This document shows, piece by piece, positions 2,805 to 60,400 of a stretch of 64,000 nucleotides of DNA (its first letter is position 1; each line of letters begins with the position of its first letter). Position numbers and translations under genes: made by a program. Below the pieces are notes generated by a model. The model worked only from the letters and a program-made list of their open reading frames with translations, was not told the origin of the DNA and searched no databases. The stretch covers positions 124,372,001-124,436,000 of the forward strand of contig OZ024744.1 of assembly GCA_964016885.1 (NCBI GenBank), given 5' to 3'. The DNA comes from Eledone cirrhosa. Its lineage: Eukaryota.

Positions 2805-2994
2805 CTCGTTATGCACCTTGCAAACAAGACCTAAGGAATTTAGTGAATCGCAGGCGAGAGCAATACGAAGCTGATATTAGGACAAAAGACATCTTGGAAG
2901 GGGTTGGTCTTGACCAGATTTTTCCTCCACAGAACTGGAAACCAAAGGGTCAACTTGTTGCTCACATGCAAGAACACAAGTCAGTTGTGAACAG
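2805..2994 (+). CDS. PIK3R4: PIK3R4/VPS15 internal exon B
   Basis: tttAG acceptor (2804) and AG|gtaaat donor (2995). Encodes (T)RYAPCKQDLRNLVNRRREQYEAD...FPPQNWKPKGQLVAHMQEHKSVVN(R), matching the PIK3R4 motif [21 protein letters not shown]. 190 nt, phase 1 to 2. Confidence 0.93.
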
Positions 2995-3016
2995 GTAAAT
3001 TTTACAAATAGCTTTG

Positions 3017-4198: not shown

Positions 4199-4329
4199 GA
4201 TTGCTGTGTGTACAGACCACTCCATGTTTGCTACATGTTCCAATGACGGAACTATGAAGTTATGGGACTGTGGCCAGTTAGAAGGAAAAAGTGTCGCTAA
4301 CCGGTCAAAGTTCACATACAGCAAGCAAG
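4199..4329 (+). CDS. PIK3R4: PIK3R4/VPS15 internal exon C (WD40 repeat)
   Basis: ttttaaAG acceptor (4198) and G|gtaaca donor (4330). Encodes [43 protein letters not shown](G), against human [44 protein letters not shown] (recalled). 131 nt, phase 2 to 1. Confidence 0.95.
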
Positions 4330-4440: not shown

Positions 4441-4778
4441 AATCCTGATTCAACCAAGTAAGATGATGGAAAAGCAATAAGGTAGAGCTGTGCTTTTTCC
4501 CAGAGTAATGGCTACTTTGTAGCAATATCATTTGTTTTCCATATATTACATACTTATATTAAGGTATTCTTCTAAAAAAACAACAATAAGAACAAGAGAT
4601 GAGAGAGAGAGAGAGAAAAAAACAGTTACCAATGGTACAATGTGAATCAAAATCTCATAAATTTGATATTATGTGAGTTAAAGTGATTACCGTGAAAATA
4701 CAAAAGTAAAAACAGTAATGTGAATGGTAAACATGCCAAATATACACATTTTAATGTAAATTGTAAAAGTGATACTAA

Positions 4779-6962
4779 GTATACTTAGCTAGGAGGGAAG
4801 CAGAGGATAGAAAATTCAAGCATGTTTTGCAACGTGAGGACCAGAATCAGGAGGTGTTCAAGATTGCGAGGCAGTGTGTCAGAGAGAATTGTGATGTCAT
4901 TGGAGAGAAGTGTATCCGGAATGATAAAGGTGAGCTTGCCCTCACAAGTGCTGAGAAGAAAGATGCATAAAAGAGCCATTATCATAGATTACTAAATGAG
5001 GAGAATGCATGGGAAGAAGAGACCCTACCCCAAGTAGATCCTATAGAGGGGCCAGCAGTATAAGTCAGCAGCAGCGTAGTAAGTAAGGCAATCAAAGATA
5101 TGAAGATGGGGAAGGCAACCGGTCCATCGGGTATAGCTGCCGAGATGCTGAAGGCATCTGGGTCTGTAGGTCACACTATAACCACACGTATTGTTAACCA
5201 GGTAATACTAGAAGGTGTCATACCAAAAGATTGGTGCAGTAGCATCATTGTCAACTGCTACAAAGGTAAAGGTGATGCACTAGTTAGAGGAAACTATAGA
5301 GGTATAAAGCTGATGGACCAGGTCATGAAAGTAACAGAAAGAGTTATAGCATAGTTGATTAGGGACCGGGTGAAACTAGATGAGATGCAATTTGGGTTTG
5401 TACCAGGAAGAGGCACCACTGATACCCTCTTCCTTGTGAGGCAGTTACAGGAAAAGTACCTAGCTAAAAGTAAGCCACTCTACTTGGCATTCGTCGATCT
5501 CGAGAAAGCCTTTGACAGAGTTCCACGTGCTGTAATCTGGTGGGCTCTTAGAAAACTAGGAGTAGATGAATGGCTTGTGAAAGCTGTACAAGACATGTAT
5601 AGGGGAGCAGTCAGCAAAGTTAGGATGAGCAATGAGTATAGCGAAGAATTTAGCGTACAGGTTGGTGTCCACCAGTGCTCTGTTCTTAGCCCTCTCCTGT
5701 TCATCATAGTCCTGCAGGCAATAACGGAGGAGTTTAAGACCGGATGCCCATGGGAATTCCTGTATGCTGATGACCTCGCACTTATAGCTGAATCTATGGT
5801 AGAACTAGAGAAGAAATTCCAAACTTGGAAGCAGAGACTAGAAAGAAAGGGTCTCAAAGACTAAGGTCCTTGTAAGTAGACGAGAAAACAGAGCCCAGAT
5901 CCCCTCAGGGAAATGGCCTTGCTCAGTATGTAGGAAAGGTGTAGGTAGGAACTCCATTCTCTGCCCCAAATGCAAACAATGGGTACTCAAGAGATGTAGC
6001 AGGATCTCAGGAAGCTTAATTAAGAATGTAGGCTTCACATGCAGCAGCTGTGCTGAGACAGCAAGCAGCAAACAGCCACAGGAAACAAGTACCACCAATC
6101 TCTGGGAGGGCTCTGTAGAAACAGTAGACAGCTTCTGCTACCTAGGTGACCGAATTAGCAGCGGAGGTGGCTGTTCAGAAAGTACAATAACTAGGGTAAG
6201 AACGGGATGGAAGAAGTTCAGGGAACTACTGCCACTGCTAGCTGCAAAAGGCTTCTCCCTCAGAATGAAAGGCAGACTGTATGATGCGTGTATCCGAACA
6301 GCAATGTTACATGGTAGTGAGACCTGGGCGCTGAAGGTGGAAGACTTACGTTAATTAGAAAGAAACGAAGCCTGCATGCTCCGATGGATGTGTAAAAGTA
6401 ATATACGCGAACGACAAAGCATAAATGAATTGAGAGAGAGACTGAGCATAAGAGGAATCAAATGCTATGTCCAGGAGAGGCGGTGACGTTGGTATGGACA
6501 TGTGATGCGTATGAAGGATGACAGCTGCATAAAAAGGTGCAGAGCACTAGAAGTCAATGGAAACCGCGGAGTGGGGAGACCCAAGAAGACCTGGGATGAG
6601 GTGATAAAAGCCGACTTTACCCAATTAACCTCTCAAAGGCGATGACACACGACCGTGACCTCTGGCGTCACGCAGTAATACAGAGTACCCGACCTCCCAT
6701 GGGTACAAGCTGAAGCATATAGACAATATGCCCCACACCCTCCCACTGCAAGGTGGTCGTGGAGGTGCCATGGCAAAAAAGCACCCAGCCCATACTGTAA
6801 ATGAGGTTGGTGCTAGGAAGGGCATCCAGCTGTAGAAATCAAGCCAAATCAGTTCCTGCATGAGCAAGGCATGGTCAGCCGACCAGACACTGCCCACAAC
6901 AGGACAACCCGTCTAACCCATGCTAGCATGGAAGAACGGATGTAAAACGGTGATGATGATGA
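4779..6962 (+). mobile_element. 5'-truncated RTE-clade LINE: RT, PHD-like finger, C-terminus, 3' UTR and (GAT)n tail; inactivated
   Basis: Motifs KMGKATGPSG, NYRGIKLM, QFGFVPGRGTTD, FVDLEKAFDRV, GVHQCSVLSPLLF, LYADDLAL, FCYLGD, MLHGSETW, GRPKKTW. Several in-frame stops (e.g. 5352-5354) and a frameshift near 5860. The ORF ends near 6713 and the tail is at 6950-6962. Confidence 0.95.
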
Positions 6963-7020
6963 CTTTGAATTGATTTTCGAACATAGTTATACAGATATAA
7001 CTTTATCATATAATTGAATA

Positions 7021-7254
7021 AAACACCCAGTCCACGCTATAATGTGGCCGTGTAGGTAACACGGTAAAAAAGCTCCCAGTCCACACTGTAAATGTGGTTG
7101 GTGTTAGGAAGGGCATCCAGCCGTAGAAAACCTGCCAGGTAGAGTCCTATACGAGCGAGACTTGGTCACCTGACCAGTCTTGCCTCAAGTGGGACAATTA
7201 CCGTTTAACCCATGCTAGCGTGGAAGATAGACGTTAAACGATGATGATGATGAT
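7021..7254 (+). mobile_element. Short element homologous to the RTE 3' UTR (RTE-tailed SINE or extremely truncated LINE)
   Basis: Shares GGTTGGTG.TAGGAAGGGCATCCAGC.GTAGAAA and AACCCATGCTAGC.TGGAAGA with 6805-6935, and ends in a (GAT)n tail at 7240-7254. Confidence 0.9.
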
Positions 7255-8760
7255 ATTACACTTCTCATCTTTGTATTTTGCGTGCATTATTTCATCACTT
7301 TGTAATTCAATGAGGGGCTCCTGCAAAGAAATGTCTATATCAGCAACATTAACTTCGAAAGGAATTGTCACCCAAGTTGGTATATCCATCATTAGTAGGT
7401 CACTAAAGCGAGTTTGCATATATTCGTGCATATTTTCTAAATATTCACTTTATAATAGAAGGTCTTCATTGTGCAAATCGCTGCTAATCGAAGCAAAAAA
7501 AGGAAACTGTTCAAATGCACGACGCCTGATATTATTTTTGTACAACTGTAGTTTTCTCAGAAAAGCAGTAATAACACCTTTACTAGATATGAGATCAGAA
7601 TCTTTTCCTTGGAGCTGTTTATTAAGTAAATTTAATTTTTCAAATATATCTGCTAAGTAAAATACATCACATTTAGTTGCAAGCAGTTGTTCTCCCGGCT
7701 GGGTGTTAGCAAGAAATGAGACAATAGAATCCCAAAGTGCAATAAAACGTTGAAGACAATTCCCCTTTGAAAGCCACCTCACCTCAGTATGTAATATAAG
7801 GCGCGCAAACTCTTCTCCATTTTGATTACAGAATTCACGAAAAAGGCAGCCTCGGAGAGAATTTTATTTAATATGGTTAAACACTTTTATCACAACAGCA
7901 AGGGCATCATCCAGAAGTCCACTCAATTTCTTTGCAAGTGTTGACGGTGTATCACACAGTGAATACAAAATACTTCGGGAACAGCTTTTTTCAAATTTGT
8001 AATAAAACCTTTGTATCTGGCTGTCATGGATGGTGCACCATCAGTAGCACATGCAATTATATTTTTGAGTGGAATATTGTTTTCCTTGAAATAAGTAACA
8101 ACTTCATTAACAATTCTTTCACCTTTTGTGTCTGTCCTAAGACTTCTAGCAAAGAGCATTTCCTCTCTGGGTCCTTTATCATCTTTAAATCTCACATATG
8201 CTAATAGCATGGCTTCATTATTATCTGTTAAGGTAGATTCATCAAGCTGAAGAGCAAACTGTTTTACTTGCAAATTAGCTATTAATTGTTTTTCTGCATT
8301 CTCTGCCATTTCATCAATGCACCGTGACATAGAAGAGTTGCTTAAAGGGATGGAATTAGTAATTTCACTTAGATTTTGTTTCATAACTGATGAAATTATA
8401 ACAGATAAAGCCGGTAAAATTACTGTTTCACCAATATTATGGGGTTTTCCAGCCTTTGCTATTATCTTGCTAATTTCATAAGATGCTAGTAAACCATCAC
8501 TCATTTTACTCACTTTTTTTTAAAACACTTGAAACACTGTTTTTTAAAGTATTCTACTGGTTGATTTTCCTTTCCTTTGTGCTTCGTTTCTAGATGGACT
8601 TTTAGTTTACAAGGTTTCATGCTATCATTTGAAAGTACATCCGTACATATGAGGCACATTGGTTTCGTTTTATTATGTGGTGATGGAATAAATCTGTAAG
8701 ACAAATATTCAACAGAATACTGTCGGCACTTCTTACTTGGAGCAGCCATGGGTTGTCTGT
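7255..8760 (-). mobile_element. hAT-superfamily (Buster/Charlie-type) transposase pseudogene
   Basis: The broken frames join into one transposase: BED-like finger (CRQYSVEYL...PMCLIC.DVLSNDSMKP.KL..HLETKH), IAKAGKPHNIGE, FALQLDEST, ACATDGAPSM, IHCVIHRQHL, HTEVRWLSKG, YLADIFEKLN. It carries frameshifts and stops and ends at the element at 7254. No TIR was identified. Confidence 0.92.
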
Positions 8761-8799
8761 AAAAAAAATTTAATAATTATATATAGCTGTTGCAACATA

Positions 8800-9698
8800 T
8801 GAGGTGTGTCAGAAAAGTTCCAGGACTGATGTCATAAAAGATTTATTTCAAACCCAAACTTCACACTAAGAGTTTTCTTCTTCAAAGTAATCCCCCTGGA
8901 GTATGTAACTGTAATCTTAGCTCTCTGCAGTGATCAAACTTTTTTCTTCATAATTTTATATACATGTCCTCTGTTTCAGGTTGTCAAGCAATGAGCACAG
9001 AGCAACAAACAAACTTGAAGTTTCTGGTACGGTTGGGGAAAACTCCGCTGCAGCAAGTGTATGGAGATGAGACGCTCACGTGTGATGCTCACGATGTGAC
9101 GCTCACGTGTTTTTGAGTGGTGCAAGAGGTTTAAAGAAGGACGTGAGGACGTGAAAGATGACCCCAGGAGCGGAAGGCCCTCAACAACCAGGACTGAGGT
9201 CAACGTTGAGCACGTCAGGCAGATGGTGCGTAGCGATCGTCGGCTGACTGTTCAACTGATGGCAAATGAGCTGGGAATGAATCGGGACAGTGTCTGGAAG
9301 ATTCTCACTGAAGATTTGGACATGCGGAAAGTCTGCGTGAAGATGGTGCCAAAAGGGTTGACGTATGCAAGTGTGCCAGGAGATCCTCGAGTGTCTTGAA
9401 ACCAAACCAGACTTGCTAGGGACAGTCATCACCGGTAATGAGTCATGGATCTTCGAGTACGACCCGGAGGGGGACTCGTTTTGAAGACGTGGATGACATC
9501 AAAAAGGCCGTGACGACAGAACTGCAGAGGATCCTGGAAGAATCCTTCCAGGAGTGCATACAAGCATGGCAGAAAAGGATGGAAAAGTGCATTAGACCCC
9601 AGGGGGATTACTTTGAAGGAGAAAACTCTTAGTGTGAAGTTTGGGTTTGAAATAAATCTTTTGTGACATCAGTCCTGGAACTTTTCTGACACACCTCG
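8800..9698 (+). mobile_element. Internally deleted mariner (probably irritans/Hsmar2-like) with 100-bp TIRs and TA target duplication
   Basis: TIRs at 8800-8899 and 9599-9698 (3 mismatches by eye), with TA at 8798-8799 and 9699-9700. Transposase remnants: KDDPRSGRPSTT, KVCVKMVPK, VITGNESWIFEYDPE (TGDE.W motif with D to N), then a jump to the C-terminal ...MEKCIRPQGDYFEG. Confidence 0.95.
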
Positions 9699-9866
9699 TA
9701 TATTACAGGTTTTTGTTAAGAAATATAAAATTGTTAAAAAATTAAAAGATATTTGGCAACAAATAAAAGACATATTTACATAAAATATGGTCATGGTAAA
9801 TATAAATGTTAGGCGTTAAAATAACTTAAATAATAAAAAAAGACATCTCTGCAAGTCATTAATCAT

Positions 9867-10041
9867 GGCAGTATCGGTAGAGGGTCGGACGCCATGCTTT
9901 GATGCATAGAGTTACGGCCCTTGCTATTCTGAGTTCAAATCCCGCCGAGGTTAACTTTGCCTTTCATCCTTACGGGGTCGATAAAATAAAGTACCAGTAA
10001 TGTACTGGGTAATGTCTGGCCTTGTGCCAATAGTAGAAACA
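9867..10041 (+). mobile_element. Single copy of the tRNA-derived SINE with a 9-bp target-site duplication
   Basis: Same family as 1927-2490, closest to the third copy there. Flanked by ATTAATCAT at 9858-9866 and 10042-10050. Confidence 0.9.
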
Positions 10042-10502
10042 ATTAATCATTGTTACCAAATTTATTCCATTATGATCACCATTGATATTTTTATATTTCT
10101 CAAAACATATATATATATCAGATAAATACAAAGTTATAAATTGAAGTTTTAAATTTGTATTAAAAAAGGAAATATTTAGCCATTTTATTCCTACAGTCTT
10201 TCAAATTGGATAAAAGATTTTAATATTGAAGCACAGATTTTCAGAAAAATTAACGTCAGTTTGTATGTACTAGTAATTTTAATACCTCTTACCTTGCCAC
10301 AAGGGAGTTCAACATAAAACTGAAGTGAACTGCTTGGGTCATGTCGATTTTTATAGGCACTGAGAGTTAATAGTAGTACCGGAAATCATCCCTGCTACTG
10401 AAGATGTTAATGCCGTTAATCCTTCCTCGATACTGTGTCTCCCCTCAGTTCCCACAATAGTAACTTGTGTATAACTTCCTCTACTGTGTCTCCTGTGAGT
10501 TG

Positions 10503-10577
10503 GTTCCCACATGGGTTAAACAAGCCGTTCATTGTGAGACAAGCCAGATCAGATGACCATATCTTGCTCATACAGCA
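10503..10577 (-). mobile_element. Small fragment of the RTE-3'UTR-related element
   Basis: ATGGGTTAAACAAG...GTGAGACAAGCCAGATCAGATGACCATATCTTGCTCATACAG aligns by eye with 11644-11707. Confidence 0.65.
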
Positions 10578-10631
10578 CTATGAAATTCCTTCAGTTGATT
10601 TTGTTCTAAGTTTTGTATTTTAATATTTCAG

Positions 10632-10716
10632 GTGGCCACATCCAGCATATGGCGTTCTGTAAAGGTACCGACATATTGGCATCAGCTTCGGACAATGGTT
10701 CAATCCAAGTTTTTAA
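10632..10716 (+). CDS. PIK3R4: PIK3R4/VPS15 internal exon D (WD40 repeat)
   Basis: tttcAG acceptor (10631) and a consensus AA|gtaagt donor (10717). Encodes (G)GHIQHMAFCKGTDILASASDNGSIQVF, against human [28 protein letters not shown] (recalled). 85 nt, with a phase-1 start matching exon C. Confidence 0.92.
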
Positions 10717-10799
10717 GTAAGTTCAGAAAATTATATTGGAGGATTTTATGTGAATGTGTCTGGACTGACCTCATCTGTTTTTGTGTCATCATTGGGGAA

Positions 10800-11192
10800 G
10801 TACCGACACAAATACAGTGTTGGCACTATCTCAGGATGGGTTTAGCTAGCTTCAGCCACTTCATTGGAAACAGACACCAGCCATGCATGGTGATGACAGA
10901 GATCCGACACAGGAGTTGTCAGTCAGTCACTTAATTTTAACAGTGAACAATAGATATGTTGAGCACAGCAGGTACAGGCTGGAAGAGGACCCGTGACAGT
11001 TCCCTCACCAGATGGTTGCATATCTTCAAGGAAGATCTCCAGAGACTCGATGTCACGAGGATGCAGAGGGGGTGGCACAATACCACCAACAATGGAGAGC
11101 ACTGAGGAACCTGGTTGGCTCTATGGATGATGATGCCTCTGGGATCACTGACTGAGGATGACCCTTGTCTCATTGAGCAAGAACAAGAAGAT
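10800..11192 (+). mobile_element. Degenerate 3' end of a second RTE-like LINE family
   Basis: Remnant GWKRTRDSSLTRWLHIFKEDLQRL...QQWRALRNLVG resembles the RTE C-terminal W.RP.GRP..RW....DL...WR motif, followed by a CAAGAA-type tail. Heavily decayed. Confidence 0.45.
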
Positions 11193-11284
11193 AATAAATA
11201 TGTGAGGACCAGACATCAATATCCAATTTGATCATACCATAATCCACATTTTTAACAGCCCATCATTGCTGTTTAGGCAAGGTG

Positions 11285-11610
11285 GATCAATGAGATCAAA
11301 AATGGTAAAACTGTTGGATTGTCAGAGATAGTTGGTGAAATGTTGAAATGATTTGGGAGAGTTAAAGTAGTCACTGAAGTAATCCATCAATGGGTGACAT
11401 TACTGACAAACCGAGGATTCTGTCCAGGTCTTGTTATTGAAGTTGTCTGCCCACACAAGAATGGTATTTCTGTTCTCTCGTTAGCCACGATTCTTGTGAT
11501 AACCAAGATGGATAATTCCCTCTCAACTATTTTGTCCATCCACTTCTTGGCTAGTAAAACACCTACTCCACTTACCCCAACATCATTTTTTATTAAGAAG
11601 CGCTTGTATC
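11285..11610. mobile_element. Degenerate RTE scraps (RT start on +, endonuclease fragment on -)
   Basis: The + strand remnant IKNGKTVGLSEIVGEMLK resembles MKMGKATGPSGIAAEMLK at 5100. The - strand GVSGVGVLLAKKWMDKIV resembles the APE endonuclease GVG motif. Confidence 0.5.
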
Positions 11611-11614
11611 TTAA

Positions 11615-11800
11615 CCATTTAATGTCCATTTTCCAAGTTAGTATGGGTTAGACAAGTTGTCCCATGTGAGACAAGCCAGGTCAGGTGACTATGTTCTGCT
11701 CATACAGAACTGTTTCTGGCTTGGTTTCTACAGTTGCATGCCCTTCCTAACACTAACCATTTTACAGTGTGTACTGGGTACTTTTTTTTGTGACACCTAC
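11615..11800 (-). mobile_element. Antisense copy of the RTE 3'-UTR element that runs directly into the satellite (seed element)
   Basis: TGGGTTAGAC...TGGCTTGGTTTCTACAGTTGCATGCCCTTCCTAACACTAACCATTTTACAGTGTGTACTGGGT is collinear with the reverse complement of 6760-6950 and 7050-7240. Confidence 0.9.
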
Positions 11801-14800
11801 ATGACCACTTTACTATGTGTACTGGATACATTTTGTTGTGCCACCTACATGACTGCTTTGCAGTGTGGACTGGGTACTTTTTGTTGTGACACCTACATGA
11901 CTGCTTTGCAGTGTGGACTGGGTACTTTTTGTTGTGACACCTACATGACTACTTTACAGTGTGTACTGGGTACTTATTGTTGTGACACCTACATGACCAC
12001 TTTACAGTGTGTACTGGGTACTTATTGTTGTGACACCTACATGAGTATTTTGCAGTGTGGACTGGGTACTTTTTGTCATGACACCTACATGACCACACAG
12101 TGTAGACTGGGTACTTTTTGTCATAACACCTACATGACCACTTTACTGTATGTACTGGGTACTTGTTGTGCCACCTACATGACTACTTTACAGTGTATAC
12201 TGGGTACTATTTGTCGTGACACATACATGACCACTTTACAGTGTGTACTGGGTACTTGTTGTTGGGCCACCTACATGACTACTTTACAGTGGGTATTGGG
12301 TACTTTTTGTTGGGACATCTACATGACCACTTTACAGTGTGGAATGGGTACTTTCTGTTGTGACACCTACATGACCACTTTCCAGTGTTTACTGGGTATT
12401 TTTTGTCATGACGCCTTCATGACCACTTTACAGTATGTACTGGGTACTTTTTGTTGTGACACCTACATGACCACTTTACAGTGTGTACTGGATACTTTTT
12501 GTCATGACACCTACATGACCATTTTACAGTGTGTACTGGGTACTTTTGGTTGTGACATCTACATGACCACTTTCCAGTGTTTACTGGGTATATTTTGTTA
12601 TGACACCTACATGACCACTTTACAGTGTGTACTAGGTACTTTTTGTCATGATACCTACGTTGCCACTTTACAGTGTGTACTGGGTACTTTTTGTTGTGAC
12701 ACCTACATGACCAATTTACTATGTGGAACGGGTACTTTTTGTTGTGACACCTACATGAACACTTTCCAGTGTTTACTGGGTACTTTTTGTCATGACACCT
12801 ACATGACCACTTTACAGTGTGTACTAGGTACTTTTTGTTGTGACACCTACATGACCAATTTACAATGTGTACTGGGTACTTTTTATTGTGACACCTACAT
12901 GACTACATTACGGTGTGTACTGGGTAATTTTTGTTGTGACACCTACATGACCACTTTACAGTATGTACTGGGTACTTTTTGTTGTGACACCTCCATGACC
13001 ACTTTATAGTGTGGAATGGGTACTTTTTGTTGTGACACCTACATGACCACTTTCCAGTGTTTACTGGGTACTTTTTGTCATGACACCTACATGACTACTT
13101 TACAGTGTGTACTGGGTACTTTTTATTGTGACACCTACATGAATACTTTACAGTGTGTACTGGGTACTTTTTGATGTGACACCTACATGACCACTTTCCA
13201 GTGTTTACTGGGTACTTTTTGTCATGACACCTACATGACCAGTTTACAGTGTTTACTGGGTATTTTTTGTCATGACACCTACATGACCACTTTACAGTGT
13301 GTACTGGGTACTTTTTGTCATGTTACCTACATGACCACTTTACAGTGTGTACAGGGTACTTTTTGTTGTGACACCTACATGACTACTTTACAGTGTGTAC
13401 TGGGTACTTTTTGTCATGACACCTACATGACCAATTTACAATGTGTACTGGGTACTTTTTGTTGTGACACCTTCATGACCACTTTACAGTGTGTACTGGG
13501 TACTTTTGTTGTGACACCTCCATGACCACTTTATAGTGTGGAATGGGTACTTTTTGTTGTGAGACCTACATGACCACTTTCCAGTGTTTACTGGCTGTTT
13601 TTTGTCATGACACATACATGACCACTTTACAATGTGTACTGGGTACTTTTTGTTGTGACACCTACATGACCACTTTACAGTGTGTACTGGGTACTTTTTG
13701 CGGTGACACCTACATGTCTACTTTACAGTGTGGACTGAGTACTTTTTGTTGTGACACCTGCATGTCTACTTTACAGTGTGGACTGAGTACGTTTTGTTGT
13801 AAAACCAACATGACCACTTTACAGTGTAAAATGGGTACTTTTTGTCATGACACCTTCATAACCACTTTACAGTATGTACTGAGTTATTTTTGTTGAGACA
13901 CCTACATGACTACTTTACAGTGTGTACTGGGTACTTTTTGTCATGACACCTTCATAACTACTTTACAGTATGTACTGGGTACTTGTTGTGCCACCTACAT
14001 GACTACTTTACAGTGTATACTGGGTACTATTTGTCGTGACACATACATGACCACTTTACAGTGTGTACTGGGTACTTGTTGTTGTGCCACCTACATGACC
14101 ACTTTACAGTGTGGACTGGGTACTTTTTGATGTGACACCTACATGACTACTTTACAGTGTGGACTTGGTACTTTTTGTCATGACACCTACATGACCACAC
14201 AGTGTAGACTGGGTACTTTTTGTCATAATACCTACATGACCACTTTACAGTATCTACTGGGAATTGTTGTGCCACCTACATGACTACTTTACAGTGTGTA
14301 CTGGGTACTATTTGACATGACACCTACATGACCAATTTACAATGTGTACTGGGTACTTTTTGTTGTGACACCTATATGACAACATTACAGTGTGTACTGG
14401 GTACTTTTTGTTGTGACACCTACATGACCACTTTACAGTGTGGACTGGATACCTTATGTCGTGACACCTACATGACCACTTTACAGTGTGTACTGGGTAC
14501 TTTTTGTCATAACCCCTACATAAATACTTTGCAGTGTGGACTGAGTACTTTATGCTGTGACACCTACATGAGCACTTTACTGTGGGTATTGGGTACTTTT
14601 TGTTGTGACATCTACATGACCCCTTTACAGTGTGGAATGGGTACTTTTTGTTGTGACACTTTCCATGACCACTTTCCAGTGTTTACTGGGTATTTTTTGT
14701 CATGACTCTTTCAGGACCACTTTACAGTATGTACTGGGTACTTTTTATTGTGACACCTACATGACCATTTTACAGTGTGTACTGGGTACTTTTTGTTGTG

Positions 14801-17800
14801 ACATCTACATGAACACTTTCCAGTGTTTACTGGGTACTTTTTGTCATGACACCTACATGACCACTTTACAGTATGTACTAGGTACTTTTTGTTATGACAC
14901 CTACATGACTACTTTACAGTGTGTACTGGGTACTTTTTGTTGTGACACCTACATGACCAATTTACAATGTGTACTGGGTACTTTTTATTCTGAAACCTAC
15001 ATGACTACATTACAGTGTGTACTGGGTAATTTTTGTTGTGACACCTACATGACCACTTTACAGTGTTTACTCGGTATTTTTTGTCATGACACCTACATGA
15101 CCACTTTACAGTGTGTACTGGGTACTTTTTGTTGTGACACCTCCATGACCACTTTATAGTGTGGAATGGGTACTTTTTGTTGTGACACCTACATGACCAC
15201 TTTCCAGTGTTTACTGGGTACTTTTTGTCATGACACCTACATGACTACTTTACAGTGTGTACTGGGTACTTTTTATTGTGACACCTACATGAATACTTTA
15301 CAGTGTGTACTGGGTACTTTTTGATGTGACACCTACATGACCACTTTCCAGTGTTTACTGGGTACTTTTTGTCATGACACCTACATGACCACTTTACAGT
15401 GTTTACTGGGTATTTTTTGTCATGACACCTACATGACCACTTTACAGTGTGTACTGGGTACTTTTTGTCATGTTACCTACATGACCACTTTACAGTGTGT
15501 ACAGGGTACTTTTTGTTGTGACACCTACGTGACTACTTTACAGTGTGTACTGGGTACTTTTTGTTGTGACACCTACATGACCAATTTACAATGTGTACTG
15601 GGTACTTTTTGTTGTGACACCTACATGACCACTTTACAGTTTCTACTGGGTACTTTTTGTTGTGACACCTACATGACTACTTTACAGTGTGTACTGGGTA
15701 CTTTTTGCGGTGACACCTACATGTCTACTTTACAGTATGGACTGGGTACTTTTTGTTGTAAAACCTACATGACCACTTTACAGTGTAAAATGGGTACTTT
15801 TTGTCATGACACCTTCATAACCACTTTACAGTATGTACTGAGTTATTTTTGTTGAGACACCTACATGACCACTTTGCAGTGTGTACTGGGTACTTTTTGT
15901 CATGACACCTTCATAACCACTTTACAGTATGTACTGGGTGCTTTTTGTTGTGACACCTACAAGACAACTTTCCCGTCTTTACTGGGTATTTTTTGTCATG
16001 ATACCTACATGACTACTTTACAGTGTGGACTGGGTACTTTGTCTTGTGACAACTACATGACTACTTTACAGTGTGGACTAGGTGCTTTGTCTTGTGACAC
16101 CTACATGACTACTTTGCAGTGTGGAATGGGTACTTTTTGTCATGACACCTACATGACCACACAGTGTAGACTGGGTACTTTTTAAATTGACACCTTCATG
16201 ACCACTTTACAGTATCTACTGGGAATTGTTGTGCCACCTACATGACTACTTTACAGTGTGTACTGGGTACTATTTGACATGACACCTACATGACCACTTT
16301 ACAGTGTGTACTGGGTGCTTGTTGTTGTGCCACCTACATGACCACTTTACAGTGTGGACTGGGTACTTTTTGTTGTGACACCTACATGACTACTTTACAG
16401 TGTGGACTTGGTACTTTTTGTCATGACACCTACATGACCACACAGTGTAGACTGGGTACTTTTTGTCATAATACCTACATGACCACTTTACAGTATCTAC
16501 TGGGAATTGTTGTGCCACCTACATGACTACTTTACAGTGTGTACTGGGTACTATTTGACATGACACCTACATGACCAATTTACAATGTGTACTGGGTACT
16601 TTTTGTTGTGACACCTATATGACAACATTACAGTGTGTACTGGGTACTTTTTGTTGTGACACCTACATGACCACTTTACAGTGTGGACTGGATACCTTAT
16701 GTCGTGACACCTACATGACCACTTTACAGTGTGTACTGGGTACTTTTTGTCATAACCCCTACATAAATACTTTGCAGTGTGGACTGAGTACTTTATGCTG
16801 TGACACCTACATGAGCACTTTACTGTGTGTACTGTTTACTTTTTGTTGTGACATATACATGTCTACTTTACAGTGTGGTCTGGGTACTTTTTGTTGTGAC
16901 ACCTACATGAACACTTTCCAGTGTTTAATGGGTACTTTCTGTCATGACACCTACATGACCACTTTACAGTATGTACTAGGTACTTTTTGTTATGACACCT
17001 ACATGACTACTTTACAGTGTGTACTGGGTACTTTTTGTTGTGACACCTACATGACCAATTTACAATGTGTACTGGGTACTTTTTATTGTGACACCTACAT
17101 GACTACATTACAGTGTGTACTGGGTAATTTTTGTTGTGACACCTACATGACCACTTTACAGTGTTTACTGGGTATTTTTTGTCATGACACCTACATGACC
17201 ACCTTACAGTATGTACTGGGTACTTTTTGTTGTGACACCTCCATGACCACTTTATAGTGTGGAATGGGTACTTTTTGTTGTGACACCTACATGACCACTT
17301 TCCAGTGTTTACTGAGTACTTTTTGTCATGACACCTACATGACTACTTTACAGTGTGTACTGGGTACTTTTTATTGTGACACCTACATGAATACTTTACA
17401 GTGTGTACTGGGTACTTTTTGATGTGACACCTACATGACCACTTTCCAGTGTTTACTGGGTACTTTTTGTCATGACACCTACATGACCACTTTACAGTGT
17501 TTACTGGGTACTTTTTGTTGTGACACCTACATGACTACTTTACAGTGTGTACTGGGTACTTTTTGTTGTGACACCTACATGACCAATTTACAATGTGTAC
17601 TGGGTACTTTTTGTTGTGACACCTACATGACCACTTTACAGTTTGTACTGGGTACTTTTTGTTGTGACACCTACATGACTACTTTACAGTGTGTACTGGG
17701 TACTTTTTGCGGTGACACCTACATGTCTACTTTACAGTGTGGACTGGGTACTTTTTGTTGTAAAACCTACATGACCACTTTACAGTGTAAAATGGGTACT

Positions 17801-18394
17801 TTTTGTCATGACACCTTCATAACCACTTTACAGTATGTACTGAGTTATTTTTGTTGAGACGCCTTCATGACCACTTTACAGTATCTACTGGGAATTGTTG
17901 TGCCACCTACATGACTACTTTACAGTGTGTACTGGGTACTATTTGACATGACACCTACATGACCACTTTACAGTGTGTACTGGGTGCTTGTTGTTGTGCC
18001 ACCGACATGACTACTTTACAGTATGGACTGGGTACTTTTTGTTGTGACACCTACATGACTACTTTACAGTGTAGACTGGGTACTTTTTGTCATAATACCT
18101 ACATGACCACCTTACAGTATCTACTGGGAATTGTTGTGCCACCTACATGACTACTTTACAGTGTGTACTGGGTACTATTTGACATGACACCTACATGACC
18201 ACTTTACAGTGTGTACTGGGTGCTTGTTGTTGTGCCACCTACATGACTACTTTACAGTATGGACTGGGTTCTTTTTGTTGGAAAACCTACATGACCACTT
18301 TACAGTGTAAAATGGGTACTTTTTGTCATGACACCTTCATAACCACTTTACAGTATGTACTGAGTTATTTTTGTTGAGACACCTTCATGACACC

Positions 18395-21300
18395 TTTACA
18401 GTATCTACTGGGAATTGTTGTGCCACCTACATGACTACTTTACAGTGTGTACTGGGTACTAATTGACATGACACCTATATGACTACTTTACAGTGTGTAC
18501 TGGGTGCTTGTTGTTGTGCCACCTACATGACCACTTTACAGTGTGGACTGGGTACTTTTTGTTGTGACACCTACATGACTACTTTACAGTGTAGACTGGG
18601 TACTTTTTGTCATAATACCTACATGACCACCTTACAGTATCTACTGGGAATTGTTGTGCCACCTACATGACTACTTTACAGTGTGTACTGGGTACTATTT
18701 GACATGACACCTACATGACCACTTTACAGTGTGTACTGGGTGCTTGTTGTTATGCCACCTACATGACTACTTTACAGTATGGACTGGGTTCTTTTTGTTG
18801 TAAAACCTACATGACCACTTTATAGTGTGGAATGGCTACTTTCTCTCATGACACCTTCATAACCACTTTACAGTATGTACTGAGTAATTTTTGTTGGACT
18901 CCTACATGACCAATTTACAATGTGTACTGGGTACTTTTTGTTGTGACACCTATATGACAACATTACAGTGTGTACTGGGTACTTTTTGTTGTGACACCTA
19001 CATGACCACTTTACAGTATGGACTGGATACCTTATGTCGTGACACCTACATGACCACTTTACAGTGTGTACTGGGTACTTTTTGTCATAACCCCTACATA
19101 AATACTTTGCAGTGTGGACTGAGTACTTTATGCTGTGACACCTACATGAGCACTTTACTGTGTGTACTGTTTACTTTTTGTTGTGACATCTACATGTCTA
19201 CTTTACAGTATTGTCTGGGTACTTTTTGTTGTAAAACCTTCATAACCACTTTACAGTATGTACTGAGTTATTTTTGTTGAGTCACCTACATGACTACATT
19301 ACAGTGTGTACTGGGTACTTTTTGTCATGACACCTTCATGACCACTTTACAATATGTACTGGGTACTTTTTGTCATGACACCTACGTGACCACTTTACAG
19401 TGTGTACTGGATACTTTTTGTCAGGAAACCTACATGACTACTTTATTGTGTGTACTGGGTACTTTTTATTGTGACACTTACATGACCACTTTACAGTGTG
19501 GACTGGGTACATTTTGTTGTGACACCTACATGACCACTTTGCAGTGTGTACTGGGTACTTTTTGTTGTTACACCTACATGACCACTTTACAGTGTGGACT
19601 GCGTACTTTTTGTTGTGACACCATCATGACCACTTTACAGTGTGTACTGGGTACTTTTTGTTGACACCTACATGACCACTTTACAGTGTGGACTGGGTAC
19701 TTTGTCTTGTGACACCTACAAGACTGCTTTGCAGTGTGGACTGGGTACTTTTTGTCATGACACCTACATGATCACTTTACAGTATGTACTGGGTACTTGT
19801 TTTGCCACCTACATGACTACTTTCAGTATGTACTGGGTACTATTTGTCATGAAACCTACATGACCTCTTTACAGTGTGTACTGAGTGCTTATTGTTGTGC
19901 CAACTACATGACCACTTTACAGTGTGGAATGGGTACTTTTTGTTGTGACACCTACATGACCACTTTACACTGTGTAATGGGTACTTTTTGTTGTGACAAC
20001 TACATGACCACTTTACAGTGTGGAATGGGTACTTTTTGTTGTGACACCTACATGACCACTTTCCAGTGTTTACTGGGTATTTGTTGTCATGACACCTACA
20101 TGACCACTTTACATTCTGTACTGGGTACTTTTTGATGTGACGCCTACATGACCACTTTACAGTGTGAACTGGGTACTCTTTGTTGTGACATCTACATGAC
20201 AACTTTACAGTGTGTACTGGGTACTGTTTGTTGTGACACCTACATGACTACATTACAGTGTGTACTGGGTTCTTTTTGTTATGACACCTACATGACGACT
20301 TTACAGTGTGTACTGGGTACTTTTTGCCGTGACACCTACATGACCACTTTACAGTGTGTACTGGGTGTTTGTTGTTGTGCCACCTACATGACTACTTTAC
20401 AGTGTGGAATAGGTACTTTTTATCATGACACCTTCATAACCACTTTACAGTATGTACTGAGTAATTTTTGTTGTGACACCTACATGACCACTTTACAGTG
20501 TGTACTGGGTACTTTTTGTCATGACACCTTCATGACCACTTTACAGTATGTACTGTGTACTTTTTGTTGTGACACCTACATGACTACTTTACAGTGTGGA
20601 CTGGGTAATTTTTGTTGTGGCACCTACATGACCACTTTACAGTATGTACTGGGTACTTTTTATTCAGACACCTACATGACCACTTTACAGTGTATACTCG
20701 GTGCTTTTTGTTGTGACACCTACATGACCACTTTCCAGTGTTTACTGGGTATTTTTTGTAATGACACCTACATGACCACTTTACAGTGTGTACTGGGTAT
20801 TTTTTGTTGTGACACCTACATGACCACTTTATAGTGTGGACTGGGTACATTTTGTTGTGACACCTACATGACCACTTTACAGTGTGTACTGGGTACTTTT
20901 TGATGTGACACCTACAAGACCACTTTCCAGTGTTTACTGGGTACTTTTTGTCATGACACCTACATGACCACTTTACAGTGTTTACTGGGTATTTTTTGTC
21001 ATGACACCTACATGACCACTTTACAGTGTGTACTGGGCACTTTTTGTCATGTTACCTACATGACCACTTTACAGTGTGTACAGGGTACTTTTTGTTGTGA
21101 CACCTACATGACTACTTTACAGTGTGTACTGGGTACTTTTTGTTGTGACACCTACATGACCAATTTACAATGTGTACTGGGTACTTTTTGTTGTGACACC
21201 TACATGACCACTTTACAGTTTGTACTGGGTACTTTTTGTTGTGACACCTACATGACTACTTTACAGTGTGTACTGAGTACTTTTTGCGGTGACACCTACA

Positions 21301-24300
21301 TGTCTACTTTACAGTGTGGACTGAGTACTTTTTGTTGTGACACCTGCATGTCTACTTTACAGTGTGGACTGGGTACTTTTTGTTGTAAAACTTACATGAC
21401 CACTTTACAGTGTAAAATGGGTACTTTTTGTCATGACACCTTCATAACCACTTTACAGTATGTACTGAGTTATTTTTGTTGAGACACCTTCATAACCACT
21501 TTACAGTATGTACTGGGTGCTTTTTGTTGTGACACCTACAAGACAACTTTGCCGTCTTTACTGGGTATTTTTTGTCATGATACCTACATGACTACTTTAC
21601 AGTGTGGACTGGGTACTTTGTCTTGTGACACCTACATGACTACTTTACAGTGTGGACTGGGTACTTTGTCTTGTGACACCTACATGACTACTTTCTAGTG
21701 TGGACTGGGTACTTTTTGTCATGACACCTACATGACCACACAGCGTAGACTGGGTACTTTTTGTCATGACACCTTCATGACCACATTACAGTATCTACTG
21801 GGAATTGTTGTGCCACCTACATGACTACTTTACAGTGTGTACTGGGTGCTTGTTGTTGTGCCACCTACATGACTACTTTACAGTATGAACTGGGTTCTTT
21901 TTATTGTAAAACCTACATGACCACTTTATAGTGTGGAATGGCTACTTTTTGTCATGACACCTTCATAACCACTTTACAGTATGTACTGAGTAATTTTTGT
22001 TGTGACTCCTACATGACCAATTTACAATGTGTACTGGGTACTTTTTGTTGTGACACCTATATGACAACATTACAGTGTGTACTGGGTACTTTTTGATGTG
22101 ACACCTACATGACCACTTTCCAGTGTTTACTGGGTACTTTTTGTCATGACACCTACATGACCGCTTTACAGTGTGGACTGGGTACTTTTTGTTGTGACAC
22201 CTACATGACCACTTTACTGTGTATACTGGGTACTTTTTGTTGTGACACCTACATGACTACTTTACAGTGTGGACTGGGTAATTTATGTCATGACACCTAC
22301 ATGACCACACATTGTAGACTGGGTACTTTTTGTCATAACACCTACATGACCACTTTACAGTATGTACTGGGTACTTGTTGTGCCACCTACATGACTGCTT
22401 TACAGTGTGTACTGGGTACTATTTGTCATGAGACTACATGACCACTTTACAGTGTGTACTGGGTGCTTGTTGTTGAGCCACCTACATGACTACTTTACAG
22501 TGTGGCATAGGTACTTTTTATCATGACACCTTCATAACCACTTTACAGTATGTACTGAGTAATTTTTGTTGTGACACCTACATGACCACTTTACAGTGTG
22601 GAATGGGTACTTTTTGTTGTGACATCTATATAACCACTTTACAGTGTGGAATGGGTACTTTTTGTTGTGACACCTACATGACCACTTTACAGTGTGTACT
22701 GGGGACTTTTTGTTGGGACACCTACATGACCACTTTACAGTGTGTACTGGGTACTTTTTTTTGTGACACCTACATGACCACTTTACAGTGTATACTCGGT
22801 ACTTTTTGTTGTGACACCTACATGACCACTTTCCAGTGTTTACTGGGTATTTTTTGTTGTGACACCTACATGACCACTTTACAGTGTGTACTGGGTACTT
22901 TTTGTTGTGACACCTACATTACCACTTTACCATGTGGACTGGGTACATTTTGTTGTGACACCTACATGACTACTTTACAGTGTGGACTGGGTAACTTATG
23001 TCATGACACCTACATGACCACACATTGTAGACTGGGTACTCTTTGTCATAACACCTACATGACCACTTTACAGTATGTACTGGGTACTTGTTGTGCCACC
23101 TACATGACTACTTTACAGTGTGTACTGGGTACTATGTGTCATGACACCTACATGACCACTTTACAGTGTGCAATGGGTACTTTTTCTCATGACACCTTCA
23201 TAACCACTTTACAGTATGTACTGAGTAATTTTTGTTGTGACACCTACATGACCATTTTACAGTGTCTACTGGGTACTTTTTGTCATGACACCTTCATGAC
23301 CACTTTACAGTATGTACTGGGTATTTTTTGTTGTGACACCTACATGACCACTTTACAGTGTGGACTGGGTAATTTTTGTTGTGATACCTACATGACCACT
23401 TTACAGTGTGTACTGGGTACTTTTTGTCGTGACACATACATGACCACTTTACAGTGTGTATTGGGTACTATTTGTCAGGACACTTACATGACCACTTTAC
23501 AGTGTGGACTGACTGGGTATTTTTTCTCATGACACCTTCATAACCACTTTACAGTATGTACTGAGTAAATTTTGTTGTGACACCTACATGACCAATTTAC
23601 AGTGTGGATGGGTATTTTTTCTCATGACACCTTCATAACCACTTTACAGTATGTACTGAGTAAATTTTGTTGTGAGACCTACATGACCACTTTACAGTGT
23701 GTACTGGGTACTTTTTGTTGTGACACCTACATGACCACTTTACAGTGTGTACTGGGTACTTTTTGTTGTGACACCTACATGACCACTTTACAGTGTGTAC
23801 TGGGTACTTTTTCTCATGACTCCTTCATAACCACTTTACAGTATGTACTGAGTAAATTTTGTTGTGACACCTACATGACCACTTTACAGTGTGTACTGGG
23901 TACTTTTTGTCATGACACCTTCATGACCACTTTACAGTATGTACTGGGTACTTTTTGTTGTGACACCTACATGACCACTTTACAGTGTGGACTGGGTACT
24001 TTTTGTTGTGACACCTACATGACCACTTTACAGTGTGGACTGGGTACATTATGTTGTGACACTTACATGACTACTTTACAGTGTGTACTGGGTACTATTT
24101 GTCATGACACCTACATGTCAACTTTACAGTGTGGAATGGGTACTTTTTCTCATGACACCTTCATAACCACTTTACCGTATGTACTGAGTAATTTTTGTTG
24201 TGACACCTACATGACTACTTTACAGTGTGTACTGGGTACTTTTTGTCATGACACCTTCATGACCACTTTACAGTATGTACTGAGTACTTTTTGTTGTGAC

Positions 24301-27300
24301 ACCTACATGACCACTTTACAGTGTGGACTGGGTAATTTTTGTTGTGACACCTCCATGACCACTTTACAGTGTGTACTGAGTACTTTTGTCATGATAGTTA
24401 CATGACCACTTTACAGTGTGTACTGGGTGCTATTCGTTGTGACACCTACATGACCACTTTACAGTGTGGACTGGGTACTTTTTGTTGTGACACCAACATG
24501 ACCACTTTACAGTGTGGACTGGGTACATTATGTTGTGACACCTACATGACCACTTTACAGTGTGTACTGGATACTTTTTGTCGTGACACCTACATGACCA
24601 CTTGACTGTGTGGACTGGGTAGTTTTTGTTGTGACACCTACATGACCACTTTACAGTGTGTACTGGATACTTTTTGTCATGACACCTACATGACCACTTT
24701 ACTGTGTGTACTGGGGACTTTCTGTTGTGACACCTACATGACCACTTGACTGTGTGTACTGGGTACTTTTTGTTGTGACAAACTAATGACTACTTTACAG
24801 TGTGGACTGGGTAATTTATGCCATGACACCTACATGACCAAACAGTGTAGACTGGGTACTTTTTGTCATAAGACCTACATGGCCAGTTTACAGTATGTAC
24901 TGGGTACTTGTTGTGCCACCTACATGACTACTTTACAGTGTGTACTGGGTACTATTTGTCATGACACCTACATGTCCACTTTACAGTGTGGAATGGGTAA
25001 TTTTTCTCATGACACCTTCATAACCACTTTACAGTATGTACTGAGTAATTTTTGTTGTGACACCTACATGACTACTTTACAGTGTGTACTGGGTACTTTT
25101 TGTTGTGACACCTACATGACCACTTTACAGTGTGGACTGGGTAATTTTTGTTGTGACACCTACATGACCAGTTTACAGTGTGGACTGGGTACTTTTTGTT
25201 GTGGCACCTACATGACCACTTTACAGTGTGGACTGGGTACTTTTTGTTGTGACACCTACATGACCACTTTACAGTGTGGACTGGGTACTTTTTATTGTGA
25301 CACCTACATGACCACTTTACAGTGTGTACTGGGTACTGTCTGTTGTGACACCTACATGACCACTTGACTGTGTGTACTGGGTACTTATTGTTGTGACAAA
25401 CTAATGACTACTTTACAGTGTGGACTGGGTAATTTATGTCATGACACATACATGACCACACATTGTAGACTGGGTACTTTTTGTCGTGACACCTGCATGA
25501 CCACTTTACAATATGTACTGGGTACTTGTTGTGCCACCTACATGACTACTTTACAGTGTGTACTGGGTACTATTTGTCATGAGACCTACATGACCACTTT
25601 ACAGTGTGGAATGGGTACTTTTTGTTGTGACACCTACATAACCACCTTACAGTATGTACTGAGTAAATTTTGTTGTGACACCTACATGACCACTTACATT
25701 GTGGACTGGGTACTTTTTGTTGTGAAACCTACATGACCACTTTACAGTGTGGACTAGGTACATTATGTTGTGACGCCTACATGACCACTTTACATTGTGT
25801 ACTGGATACTTTTTGTCATGACACCTACATTACCACTTTACTGTGTGTACTGGGGACTTTCTGTTGTGACACCTACATGACCACTTGACTGTGTGTACTG
25901 GGTACTTTTTGTTGTGACAAACTAATAAATACTTTACAGTGTGGACTGGGTAATTTATGCCATGACACCTACATGACCACTTTACAGTGTGGACTGGGTA
26001 CATTATGTTGTGACACCTACATGACCACACAGTGTAGACTGGGTACTTTTTGTCATAACACCTACATGACCACTTTACAGCATGTACTGGGTACTTGTTG
26101 TGCAACTTACATGACTACTTAACAGTGTGTACTGGGTACTATTTGTCATGACACCTACATGTCCACTTTACAGTGTGGAATGGGTACTTTTTCTCATGAC
26201 ACCTTCATAACTACTTTACAGTATGTACTGAGTAATTTTTGTTGTGACACCTACATGACTACTTTACAGTGTGTACTGGGTACTTTTTGTCATGACACCT
26301 TCATGACCACTTTACAGTATGTACTGAGTACTTTTTGTTGTGACACCTACATGACCACTTAACAGTGTGGACTGGGTAATTTTTGTTGTGACACCTCCAT
26401 GACCACTTTACAGTGTGTACTGAGTACTTTTGTCATGATATTTACATGACCACTTTACAGTGTGTACTGGGTGCTATTTGTTGTGACACCTACATGACCA
26501 CTTTACAGTGTGGACTGGGTACTTTTTCTCATGACACCTTCATAACCACTTTACAGTATGTACTGAGTAAATTTTGTTGTGACACCTACATGACCACTTT
26601 CCAGTGTGTACTGGGTACTTTTTGTCATGACACCTTCATGACCACTTAACAGTATGTACTGAGTACTTTTTGTTGTGACACCTACATGATCACTTTACAG
26701 TGTGGACTGGGTAATTTTTGTTGTGACACCTCAATGACCACTTTACAGTGTGTACTGAGTACTTTTGTCATGATAGTTACATGACCACTTTACAGTGTGT
26801 ACTGGGTGCTATTTGTTGTGACACCTACATGACCACTTTACAGTGTGGACTGCGTACTTTTTGTCATGACACCTTCATGACCACTTTACAGTATGTACTG
26901 GGTACTTTTTGTTGTGACACCTACATGACCACTTTACAGTGTGGACTGGGTACTTTTTGTTGTGACACCTACATGACCACTTTACAGTGTGGACTGGGTA
27001 ATTTATGTCATGACACCTACATGACCACACAATGTAGACTGGGTACTTTTTGTCATAACACCTACATGACCACTTTACAGTATGTACTGGGTACTATTTG
27101 TCATGACACCTACATGACCACTTTACAGTGTGGAAGGGGTACTTTTTCTCATGACACCTTCATAACCACTTTACAGTATGTACTGAGTAATTTTTGTTGT
27201 TGCACCTACATGACCATTTTACAGTGTGTACTGGGTACTTTTTGTCATGACACCTCCATGACCACTTTACAGTATGTACTGGGTATTTTTTGTTGTGACA

Positions 27301-36300: not shown

Positions 36301-36952
36301 TTTTTGTCATAACACCTACATGACCACTTTACAGTATGTACTGGGTACTATTTGTCATGACACCTACATGACCACTTTACAGTGTGGAAGGGGTACTTTT
36401 TCTCATGACACCTTCATAACCACTTTACAGTATGTACTGAGTAATTTTTGTTGTTGCACCTACATGACCATTTTACAGTGTGTACTGGGTACTTTTTGTC
36501 ATGACACCTCCATGACCACTTTACAGTATGTACTGGGTATTTTTTGTTGTGACACCTACATGACCACTTTACAGTGTGGACTGGGTAATTTTTGTTGTGA
36601 CACCTACATGACCACTTTACAGTGTGTACTGGGTACTATTTGTCAGGACACTTACATGACCACTTTACAGTGTGGATGGGTACTTTTTCTCATGACACCT
36701 TCATAACCACTTTACAGTATGTACTGAGTAAAATTTGTTGTGACACCTACATGACCACTTTACAGTGTGTACTGGGTACTTTTTGTTGTGACACCTACAT
36801 GACCACTTTACAGTGTGTACTGGGTACTTTTTGTTGTGACACCTACATGACCACTTTTCAGTGTGTACTGGGTACTTTTTCTCATGACACCTTCATAACC
36901 ACTTTACAGTATGTACTGAGTAAATTTTGTTGTGACACCTACATGACCACTT
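18395..36952. repeat. Near-identical ~9.3-kb tandem duplication within the satellite (copy 1 about 18395-27696, copy 2 about 27697-36952)
   Basis: The ORF track repeats at offset 9302 (18479/27781, 18891/28193, 20148/29450, 22486/31788), then at 9254 (23602/32856, 26748/36002, 27368/36622) after loss of one monomer. Confidence 0.95.
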
Positions 36953-60100: not shown

Positions 60101-60400
60101 ATAACCACTTTACAGTATGTACTGAGTAATTTTTGTTGTTACACCTACATGACCACTTTACAGTGTGTACTGGGTACTTTTTGTCATGAGACCTTCATGA
60201 CCACTTTACAGTATGTACTGGGTACATTTTGTTGTGACACCTACATGACCACTTTACAGTGTGGACTGCGTAGTTTTTGTTGTGACACCTACATGACCAC
60301 TTTACAGTGTGTACTGGGTACTTTTTGTGGTGCCATCTACATGACCACTTTACAGTGTGTACTGGATACTTTTTGTCATGACACCTACATGACCACTTTA
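54200..60400. repeat. Three tandem ~2.06-kb higher-order units within the satellite
   Basis: Rare variants GAAACCTGAATG and CAGTAAGGAC recur at a spacing of 2058 (ORF starts 55745/57803/59861 and 56033/58091/60149). Outer boundaries are approximate. Confidence 0.9.

Follow-up and report, generated by a model that had tools for sequence, protein, structure and literature searches.

A 48-bp satellite array in a VPS15 intron of Eledone cirrhosa probably grew in place from a repeat in the 3' UTR of an RTE-type LINE

The stretch of Eledone cirrhosa DNA analysed here, hereafter the window, comprises 64,000 nucleotides (GenBank assembly GCA_964016885.1, contig OZ024744.1) and corresponds to G000:C28:124372001-124436000 of the 3.0-Gb assembly. 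It contains three exons of the PIK3R4/VPS15 gene, two 5'-truncated copies of a long interspersed nuclear element (LINE) family of the RTE type and, in the intron that follows the third exon, a satellite array with a 48-bp unit, adjoined by the antisense 3' tail of a further LINE copy, the seed (Table 1). The origin of this array is the subject of this report.

Table 1. Features of the window, with positions counted from its first nucleotide
Feature	Position	Strand	Basis and remarks
PIK3R4/VPS15 exon	2805..2995	+	Human residues 937-997, E 1.3e-10
PIK3R4/VPS15 exon	4199..4329	+	Human residues 1000-1040, E 7.6e-12, among many WD40 matches
5'-truncated, broken open reading frame of a young RTE-type LINE subfamily (reverse transcriptase and PHD-like finger)	4773..6715	+	Profile and database matches
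3' untranslated region of the 4773-6715 LINE	6736..6960	+	One full 48-bp unit and a degenerate part (6736-6808), then a conserved tail ending in (TGA)n
5'-truncated LINE copy of a further subfamily	7024..7254	+	About 1.5 units and the tail
PIK3R4/VPS15 exon directly upstream of the satellite intron	10632..10716	+	Spliced contig to the next exon at G000:C28:124467444
3' tail of the seed RTE-type LINE copy	11615..11757	-	In register with the last array unit; collinear alignment
48-bp satellite array	11756..64000, on to G000:C28:124467390	- (element sense)	Tandem Repeats Finder and sequence comparison

The array runs out of the window and measures 83,634 bp in total, or 1,742 units. Within the window, Tandem Repeats Finder reports a period of 48 from position 11756 and 1,090 copies up to 63744. 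The first-pass annotation had estimated a roughly 1,000-fold expansion, and the full array is larger. The units diverge by a mean of 9% from the array's majority unit, and the divergence is uniform along the array (8-11%). Near-exact internal duplications are found at offsets of 9,302, 9,254, 3,098 and 2,058 bp (blocks of 9.25-9.30, 3.1 and 2.06 kb), which is the trace expected of unequal exchange. With 1,742 head-to-tail units and these duplications, the array shows the length and block-level homogenisation by which a satellite is recognized.

The host intron is 84,727 bp long, 98.7% of it satellite, and is spliced out. A 2,094-nt contig (run X8, type unrecorded, from another sample of the study that supplied the best-matching DNA run) matches only the 10632-10716 exon and the first exon beyond the array, joining both, and because of this contig the two exons flanking the array are assigned to VPS15. 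Searched alone, the 28-aa exon before the array gave generic WD40 matches only, and the exon after it gave no match in PDB. It should be mentioned that the 6736 and 7024 elements sit in the preceding intron, not in that of the array.

A second VPS15 copy is present in the assembly, inverted and 11 Mb apart, at G000:C28:135.42-135.575 Mb (L017-L024, L026, L028). Its flanks are 98.4-99.1% identical to those of the first locus, and three of the four exons tested are identical, the fourth being 97.7% identical with a gap. The duplicate array spans about 77.3 kb by its end coordinates, with its middle 55 kb outside the comparison, and has the same ends as the array in the window. This second locus may be an uncollapsed haplotype (or a paralogue), and the double assembly is the observation that would speak for the array being an artefact of assembly. 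We regard that explanation as hardly credible, since units that are 9% diverged fall into hundreds of distinct types, both copies of the locus hold the array with the same ends and no N, and short-read contigs (possibly from the source sample) support both the flank-to-tail join and the far flank; one of them (X1 record 4, 11015-11726) bridges the unique flank and the seed tail. The exact length of the array in the assembly could be wrong. Another satellite, with a 100-bp unit and a length of about 5 kb, lies at G000:C28:124490.7-124495.9 kb (L014) and is shorter at the duplicate locus.

The reading frame of the LINE at 4773-6715 contains a reverse transcriptase (PF00078, E 2.6e-21 at 5355-5861) followed by the PHD-like finger, whose score is slightly below the cut-off; the copy is truncated ahead of the endonuclease. 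Database relatives at 64-72% identity include single reading frames of about 1,050 aa with an AP endonuclease, then the reverse transcriptase and the PHD finger, a layout that we take to be RTE-type. A named RTE is absent among the 120 protein matches listed, and membership in the RTE clade is suggested by the architecture. All 40 scored genomic matches to 6400-6960 (93-100% identity) cover the end of the reading frame plus the 3' untranslated region (UTR), so the 48-bp unit is a genuine part of that UTR. The satellite monomer aligns to the 6736 UTR with a score of 64 (52 of 70 columns) and to the 7021 element with a score of 75 (54 of 69 columns). Neither score was reached by any of 2,000 shuffles, while the score of a control stretch from the reading frame was reached by 1,586 of 2,000. 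The sequences reported in the first-pass annotation are at their places, and its identification of the monomer as an internal repeat of the LINE 3' UTR, better matched than shuffled controls, is borne out. Its count of 1.5-2 tandem units in both neighbouring copies is right for the 7024 copy and has to be lowered for the 6736 copy.

In several subfamilies the 48-bp unit is normally present 1-3-fold in the 3' UTR, between the end of the reading frame and the tail. The family is very abundant: a 24-letter motif of the tail has 111,828 exact matches in the assembly, and 49 tail starts, one per 5.9 kb, were counted in 288 kb of incidental sequence. Among these incidental tails, 47 carry 0-3 units and the other two carry 9 and at least 12. 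The tail of the 7024-7254 copy folds well as RNA (z -3.95). On C1 the tail motif also occurs in pairs 106-112 bp apart (G000:C1:231894/232006, 448494/448600, 536460/536572, 657502/657614 and 1047155/1047267), which suggests a subfamily with another internal duplication. An identity of the tail motif with the Ceph domain is unsupported by the text consulted.

Read as its reverse complement, the stretch 11615-11757 runs collinear to both 6810-6960 and 7095-7250 and enters the array in register and without a spacer. The alignment thus confirms that the array is the collinear continuation of the 3' end of an antisense copy with no junction sequence, as first proposed. The terminal (TGA)n, present at 6950 and 7240 and in relatives, is nearly lost from the seed tail. 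The tails of the 6736 and 7024 elements share 75% and 76% identity with the seed tail, whose nearest dispersed relatives (85-89% identity) belong to another subfamily; the two neighbours are therefore cousins of the seed and not its parent. At one tail per 5.9 kb, LINE copies near the array are expected anyway, and the earlier notion of parent LINE, dimer and full array preserved together in one locus finds no support. Among the matches listed, 7 of the 27 nearest relatives of the seed tail run on into the end of the reading frame, and the other 5' ends are ragged, with no common head.

The direction of the derivation is indicated by CpG sites. Between the majority unit of the array and that of 72 older dispersed units, 4 of 48 positions differ, and two of the four are CpG sites. 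These two sites are intact in 19 and 20 of 28 units from young elements and in 21 and 18 of the 72 older ones, compared with fewer than 1% and 2% of 1,643 array units. As the elements retain two CpGs that the arrays have lost, the direction is from element to satellite. At one of the sites 1,389 of the 1,643 array units have CA and almost none TG, a founder pattern; at the other, CA occurs in 957 and TG in 522. We infer from this pattern that CpG decay came first and was followed by amplification from few founders.

The opposite course, in which the LINE took an older satellite into its 3' UTR, appears highly improbable. It would accommodate the tail-less arrays described below, one of about 700 kb, as well as a 26-letter tail motif found in 8 unrelated metagenome contigs (L199-L206; about 4 distinct sequences with differing flanks), where no 48-bp unit lies upstream; the motif is evidently a retroelement motif shared widely. 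A satellite without the tail, named in the first-pass annotation as grounds for capture, does occur in part (15 of 29 arrays), but the CpG-intact state belongs to the elements and the decayed states to the arrays, a polarity that argues against it. Moreover, the start of the unit resembles the start of the tail (11 of 13 letters, 3 gaps), the unit is placed alike in subfamilies whose reading-frame ends differ by about 25%, and the older tail type has its own unit variant.

We propose, at a probability of about three in four, that the array grew in place from the 48-bp 3' UTR repeat of an antisense, 5'-truncated RTE-type LINE copy in the VPS15 intron. The copy would have been inserted by target-primed reverse transcription, carrying two or three units, and these would have aged in place by CpG decay. 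Their number could then have increased by slippage or by unequal exchange among these pre-existing units, and the present 1,742 would have been reached as multi-kb blocks underwent unequal crossing-over or gene conversion. Many other copies probably went through the same steps independently, with a higher frequency towards chromosome ends. The array itself probably has no function and is a neutral burden on the intron.

Recurrence was evaluated first in copies picked by their tails. After removal of self, duplicates and the 9-unit query from 60 loci, 55 independent copies remained, of which 47 hold 0-4 units and 8 hold 5, 5, 6, 18, 20, about 32, 40 and 60; this rate may be biased upward, as only 40 of 4,744 and 3,258 candidates were scored. 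In principle, the suggestion that any genomic copy could act as a seed is correct, although only 2 of the 49 incidental and 8 of the 55 tail-picked copies have at least five units. Expansions were seen from 5 to about 14,500 units. At L100/L140, L164 and L106 the expanded array is located between the end of the reading frame, as scored by BLAST, and the tail; at L178 it follows the BLAST-scored end of the reading frame and has no tail. Single arrays have fixed private variants, for example a change found in 97% of the L100 units and another in 100% of L178 units. Rare monomer types are common to the array and the duplicate locus (39 of 62 and 50 of 86), and the array has 0-1 in common with any other array. 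A tree of 80 tails was built after 19 young copies had been thinned out and duplicates dropped. The 21 expanded rows are scattered over it and need 19 label changes, compared with 18.8 in shuffles, and a single clade of expanded copies is rejected (approximately unbiased test, p-AU 2.9e-6).

These data also bear on the possibility that the array was already long at insertion, either because the reverse transcriptase re-copied the repeat or because a master with many units was retrotransposed, with later growth being minor. The array stops at its far end inside a unit, like a truncated cDNA, against a (CA)n/(TA)n microsatellite run; active sublineages differ in unit number, with a single full unit at 6736 and two in the C25 and C2 copies; and the even divergence along the array would fit as well. 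The CpG founder pattern and the private fixed variants, however, require mutation before amplification, the multi-kb near-exact duplications are DNA-level events, and the expanded copies have no shared master. We therefore find this explanation quite unlikely, and it could account only for the first few units.

Arrays picked by their monomer give a more divided picture. Where the 3' end was reached, 14 of 29 end in the tail, with <1% expected by chance; by type, 5 of 10 arrays of this monomer, 6 of 9 that were picked with L100 and 3 of 10 belonging to a second variant have the tail. The 3' ends of the long arrays C10:54.40, C28:101.4-101.5 and C1:432.65 are outside this count. The largest array (G000:C25:18426715-19124327, about 700 kb) has no tail and would hold about 14,500 units if continuous; all 8 inner probes and all contiguous stretches fetched from it are array, 3-4% diverged. 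A Helitron fragment (PF14214, E 1.5e-15) borders this array at the 5' end, and a short fold-back forms the 3' end. Tails lying 2-4 kb past tail-less arrays (C25, C28:115.07, C2:12.84) were considered as displaced anchors and turned out to be separate LINE copies. The second 48-bp variant has 708 exact matches (L133:3973-4363, G000:C28:136.2157-136.2361 Mb and L207-L226 among its loci) and is often near contig ends. It is tail-less at 7 of 10 loci and tied at the other 3 to older-looking tails, and its RNA fold is not notable (z -0.6). Array, tail and an inserted element are repeated together as 3-8-kb blocks at G000:C28:119.535-119.569 Mb, C28:101.50 Mb and C28:136.207 Mb, and internal inversions were noted inside two other arrays.

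Several observations weigh against growth in place. Of the 29 monomer-picked arrays, 15 have no tail, among them 4 of 6 arrays longer than 10 kb with a 3' end that was reached, so the satellite may in part have spread on its own. A derived letter at unit position 28, present in 5 of 72 older dispersed units, is nearly fixed in the array, and it is also found in most arrays picked with this monomer and in a 9-unit array (L013:3860-4450) 12.5 kb past the big array on the opposite strand. That small array has its own tail of a different subfamily (76%) and the same monomer type as the big one. The tail tree is weakly supported (4 of 77 branches starred). No reading frame, 5' UTR part or other 5' part of the element was found at the far end of the array, and a target-site duplication was not found around the seed, where no shared word is longer than an A-run of 7 letters and the 5' flank is microsatellite; both had been called for by the first-pass annotation. 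The insertion boundary thus lacks support. Either the seed is a 5'-truncated copy or its 5' side has been lost, and target-site duplications are presumably often lost from old copies and array ends. An unexpanded allele or orthologue was not seen; contigs of runs X4 and X5 match the window, but cover 10200-10432 only and thus not the insertion site. The monomer shows nothing unusual in its RNA fold (z +0.3 to +1.6), so structure gives no reason for its expansion.

Part of this evidence is what would be expected if a LINE-derived monomer type from elsewhere had been copied into the resident element through its homologous unit, by gene conversion or reinsertion of circular DNA, and had then expanded. 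Across different tail subfamilies, about 12 loci share one majority unit (0-2 differences), although few dispersed units carry its letter at position 28; both the tail-less arrays and the frequently tail-less second variant could be explained in the same manner. Ten of the about 12 loci, however, were chosen by likeness to the array monomer, and this selection explains much of the shared letter, even if spread between loci is still possible. The remaining differences from the element are CpG decay, which is convergent, and rare monomers are not shared between the loci. We consider such a transfer unlikely and retain growth in place as the preferred explanation.

On C1 and C2, the outermost 5% of the contig holds 14 of 16 multi-hit array loci (10 of 12 once one cluster is merged) and 1 of 30 short copies that were picked by their tails (Fisher p 7e-9). 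Tail density is about 2x at the start of C1, single-hit loci were omitted, and the locus lists are not a census; a higher frequency of expansion near chromosome ends is therefore suggestive only.

Other repeats are present in the window. Broken DNA-transposase reading frames, presumably hAT-like, lie at 7256-8790 (minus strand) and 8800-9700, interrupted by a presumably Mariner-like element; a similar element occurs at L012:1835-2720. A 198-aa piece of the transposase has no Pfam match. A SINE-like (short interspersed nuclear element) repeat of about 180 bp is present in three tandem copies at 1930-2470 and singly at 9870-10045. An Rfam search of 6600-12200 gave 0 matches. The intronic segment 10200-10432 matches contigs of two runs labelled as other organisms (X4, X5) at about 99%, with the same loose end, and is not repeated in the fetched loci; a close relative, a mislabel or a transferred piece are the candidates.

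A conserved autophagy gene thus carries an 85-kb intron that is almost wholly satellite and is still spliced. Since more than 100,000 replicate seeds of one sequence and stages from one to about 14,500 units are present in one assembly, it becomes testable which seed expands, with chromosome position, recombination, CpG loss and transcription as candidate determinants. It should also be noted that repeat annotation will divide this one family into 'LINE' and 'satellite'. More speculatively, and at less than even odds, the LINE family could be a genome-wide satellite factory, with more than 110,000 primed copies of which thousands would have expanded independently, mainly near chromosome ends. 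Two element generations would have given rise to the two satellite variants, and a CpG-free variant would have escaped to spread alone, up to the 700-kb array, possibly a young centromeric or heterochromatic block.

That an internal repeat of a transposon can become a satellite is established, above all for the Ogre elements of plants. Vondrak et al. (PMC7004042) show that nine of 11 satellites of grass pea arise from short repeats in Ogre 3' UTRs, and PisTR-A is cited as an Ogre 3'-UTR satellite in PMC9659126 and PMC6947457. The legume satellites (FabTR families) resemble the present ones in their short arrays, which follow the coding region at a constant place, and in a gradient of sizes. 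They differ in that Ogre is a plant Ty3/gypsy element with long terminal repeats (LTRs), whereas the present case concerns one 48-bp unit family in a non-LTR, RTE-type LINE of an animal, and in that Ogre arrays expand in primary constrictions while those on C1 and C2 are mostly near contig ends. The present system works like the Ogre 3'-UTR satellites, of which it is not a member, its host not being a Tat/Ogre LTR retrotransposon.

The review tables, as far as available (PMC9659126, PMC6947457), also list LINE-related satellites: the common cetacean satellite (L1 3' part), chicken HinfI (CR1) and Drosophila 18HT (HeT-A/TART 3' UTR). Like the array described here, these derive from the 3' part of a non-LTR element; the entries available present them as monomers resembling or containing a LINE piece, with neither an RTE case nor recurrent expansion inside the element with the tail attached, and 'RTE' occurs 0 times in the accessible text of PMC9659126. 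Closer in their recurrence are the minisatellites derived from Alu, B1 and MaLR, which are described as having expanded many times independently from one site in a dispersed element, with short flanking repeats as seeds and, as for minisatellites in general, with a subtelomeric bias. The resemblance of the unit start to the tail start fits this short-flanking-repeat model as outlined in the text seen of PMC6947457. Those cases are short-unit minisatellites, whereas the present arrays reach 84 kb and about 700 kb.

Among cephalopod elements, the Octopus RTE-2_OV (PMC9115989) is likewise a single-frame RTE LINE with a finger domain after the reverse transcriptase. Compared by description only, it differs in that the available account gives its finger as C2H2 and its 3' UTR as mostly microsatellite, with no mention of a 48-bp repeat. 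In the accessible text on O. vulgaris repeat annotation (PMC13282606), 'satellite' and 'UTR' have 0 uses. No description of the 48-bp repeat was found in the literature; Dfam, Repbase and paper supplements, which lie outside that search, may hold one. The bipartite RTE-derived SINEs, or Ceph-SINEs (PMC5786205, seen in part), share RTE 3' ends with the present copies, and differ by a common 5' head that the relatives of the seed do not have.

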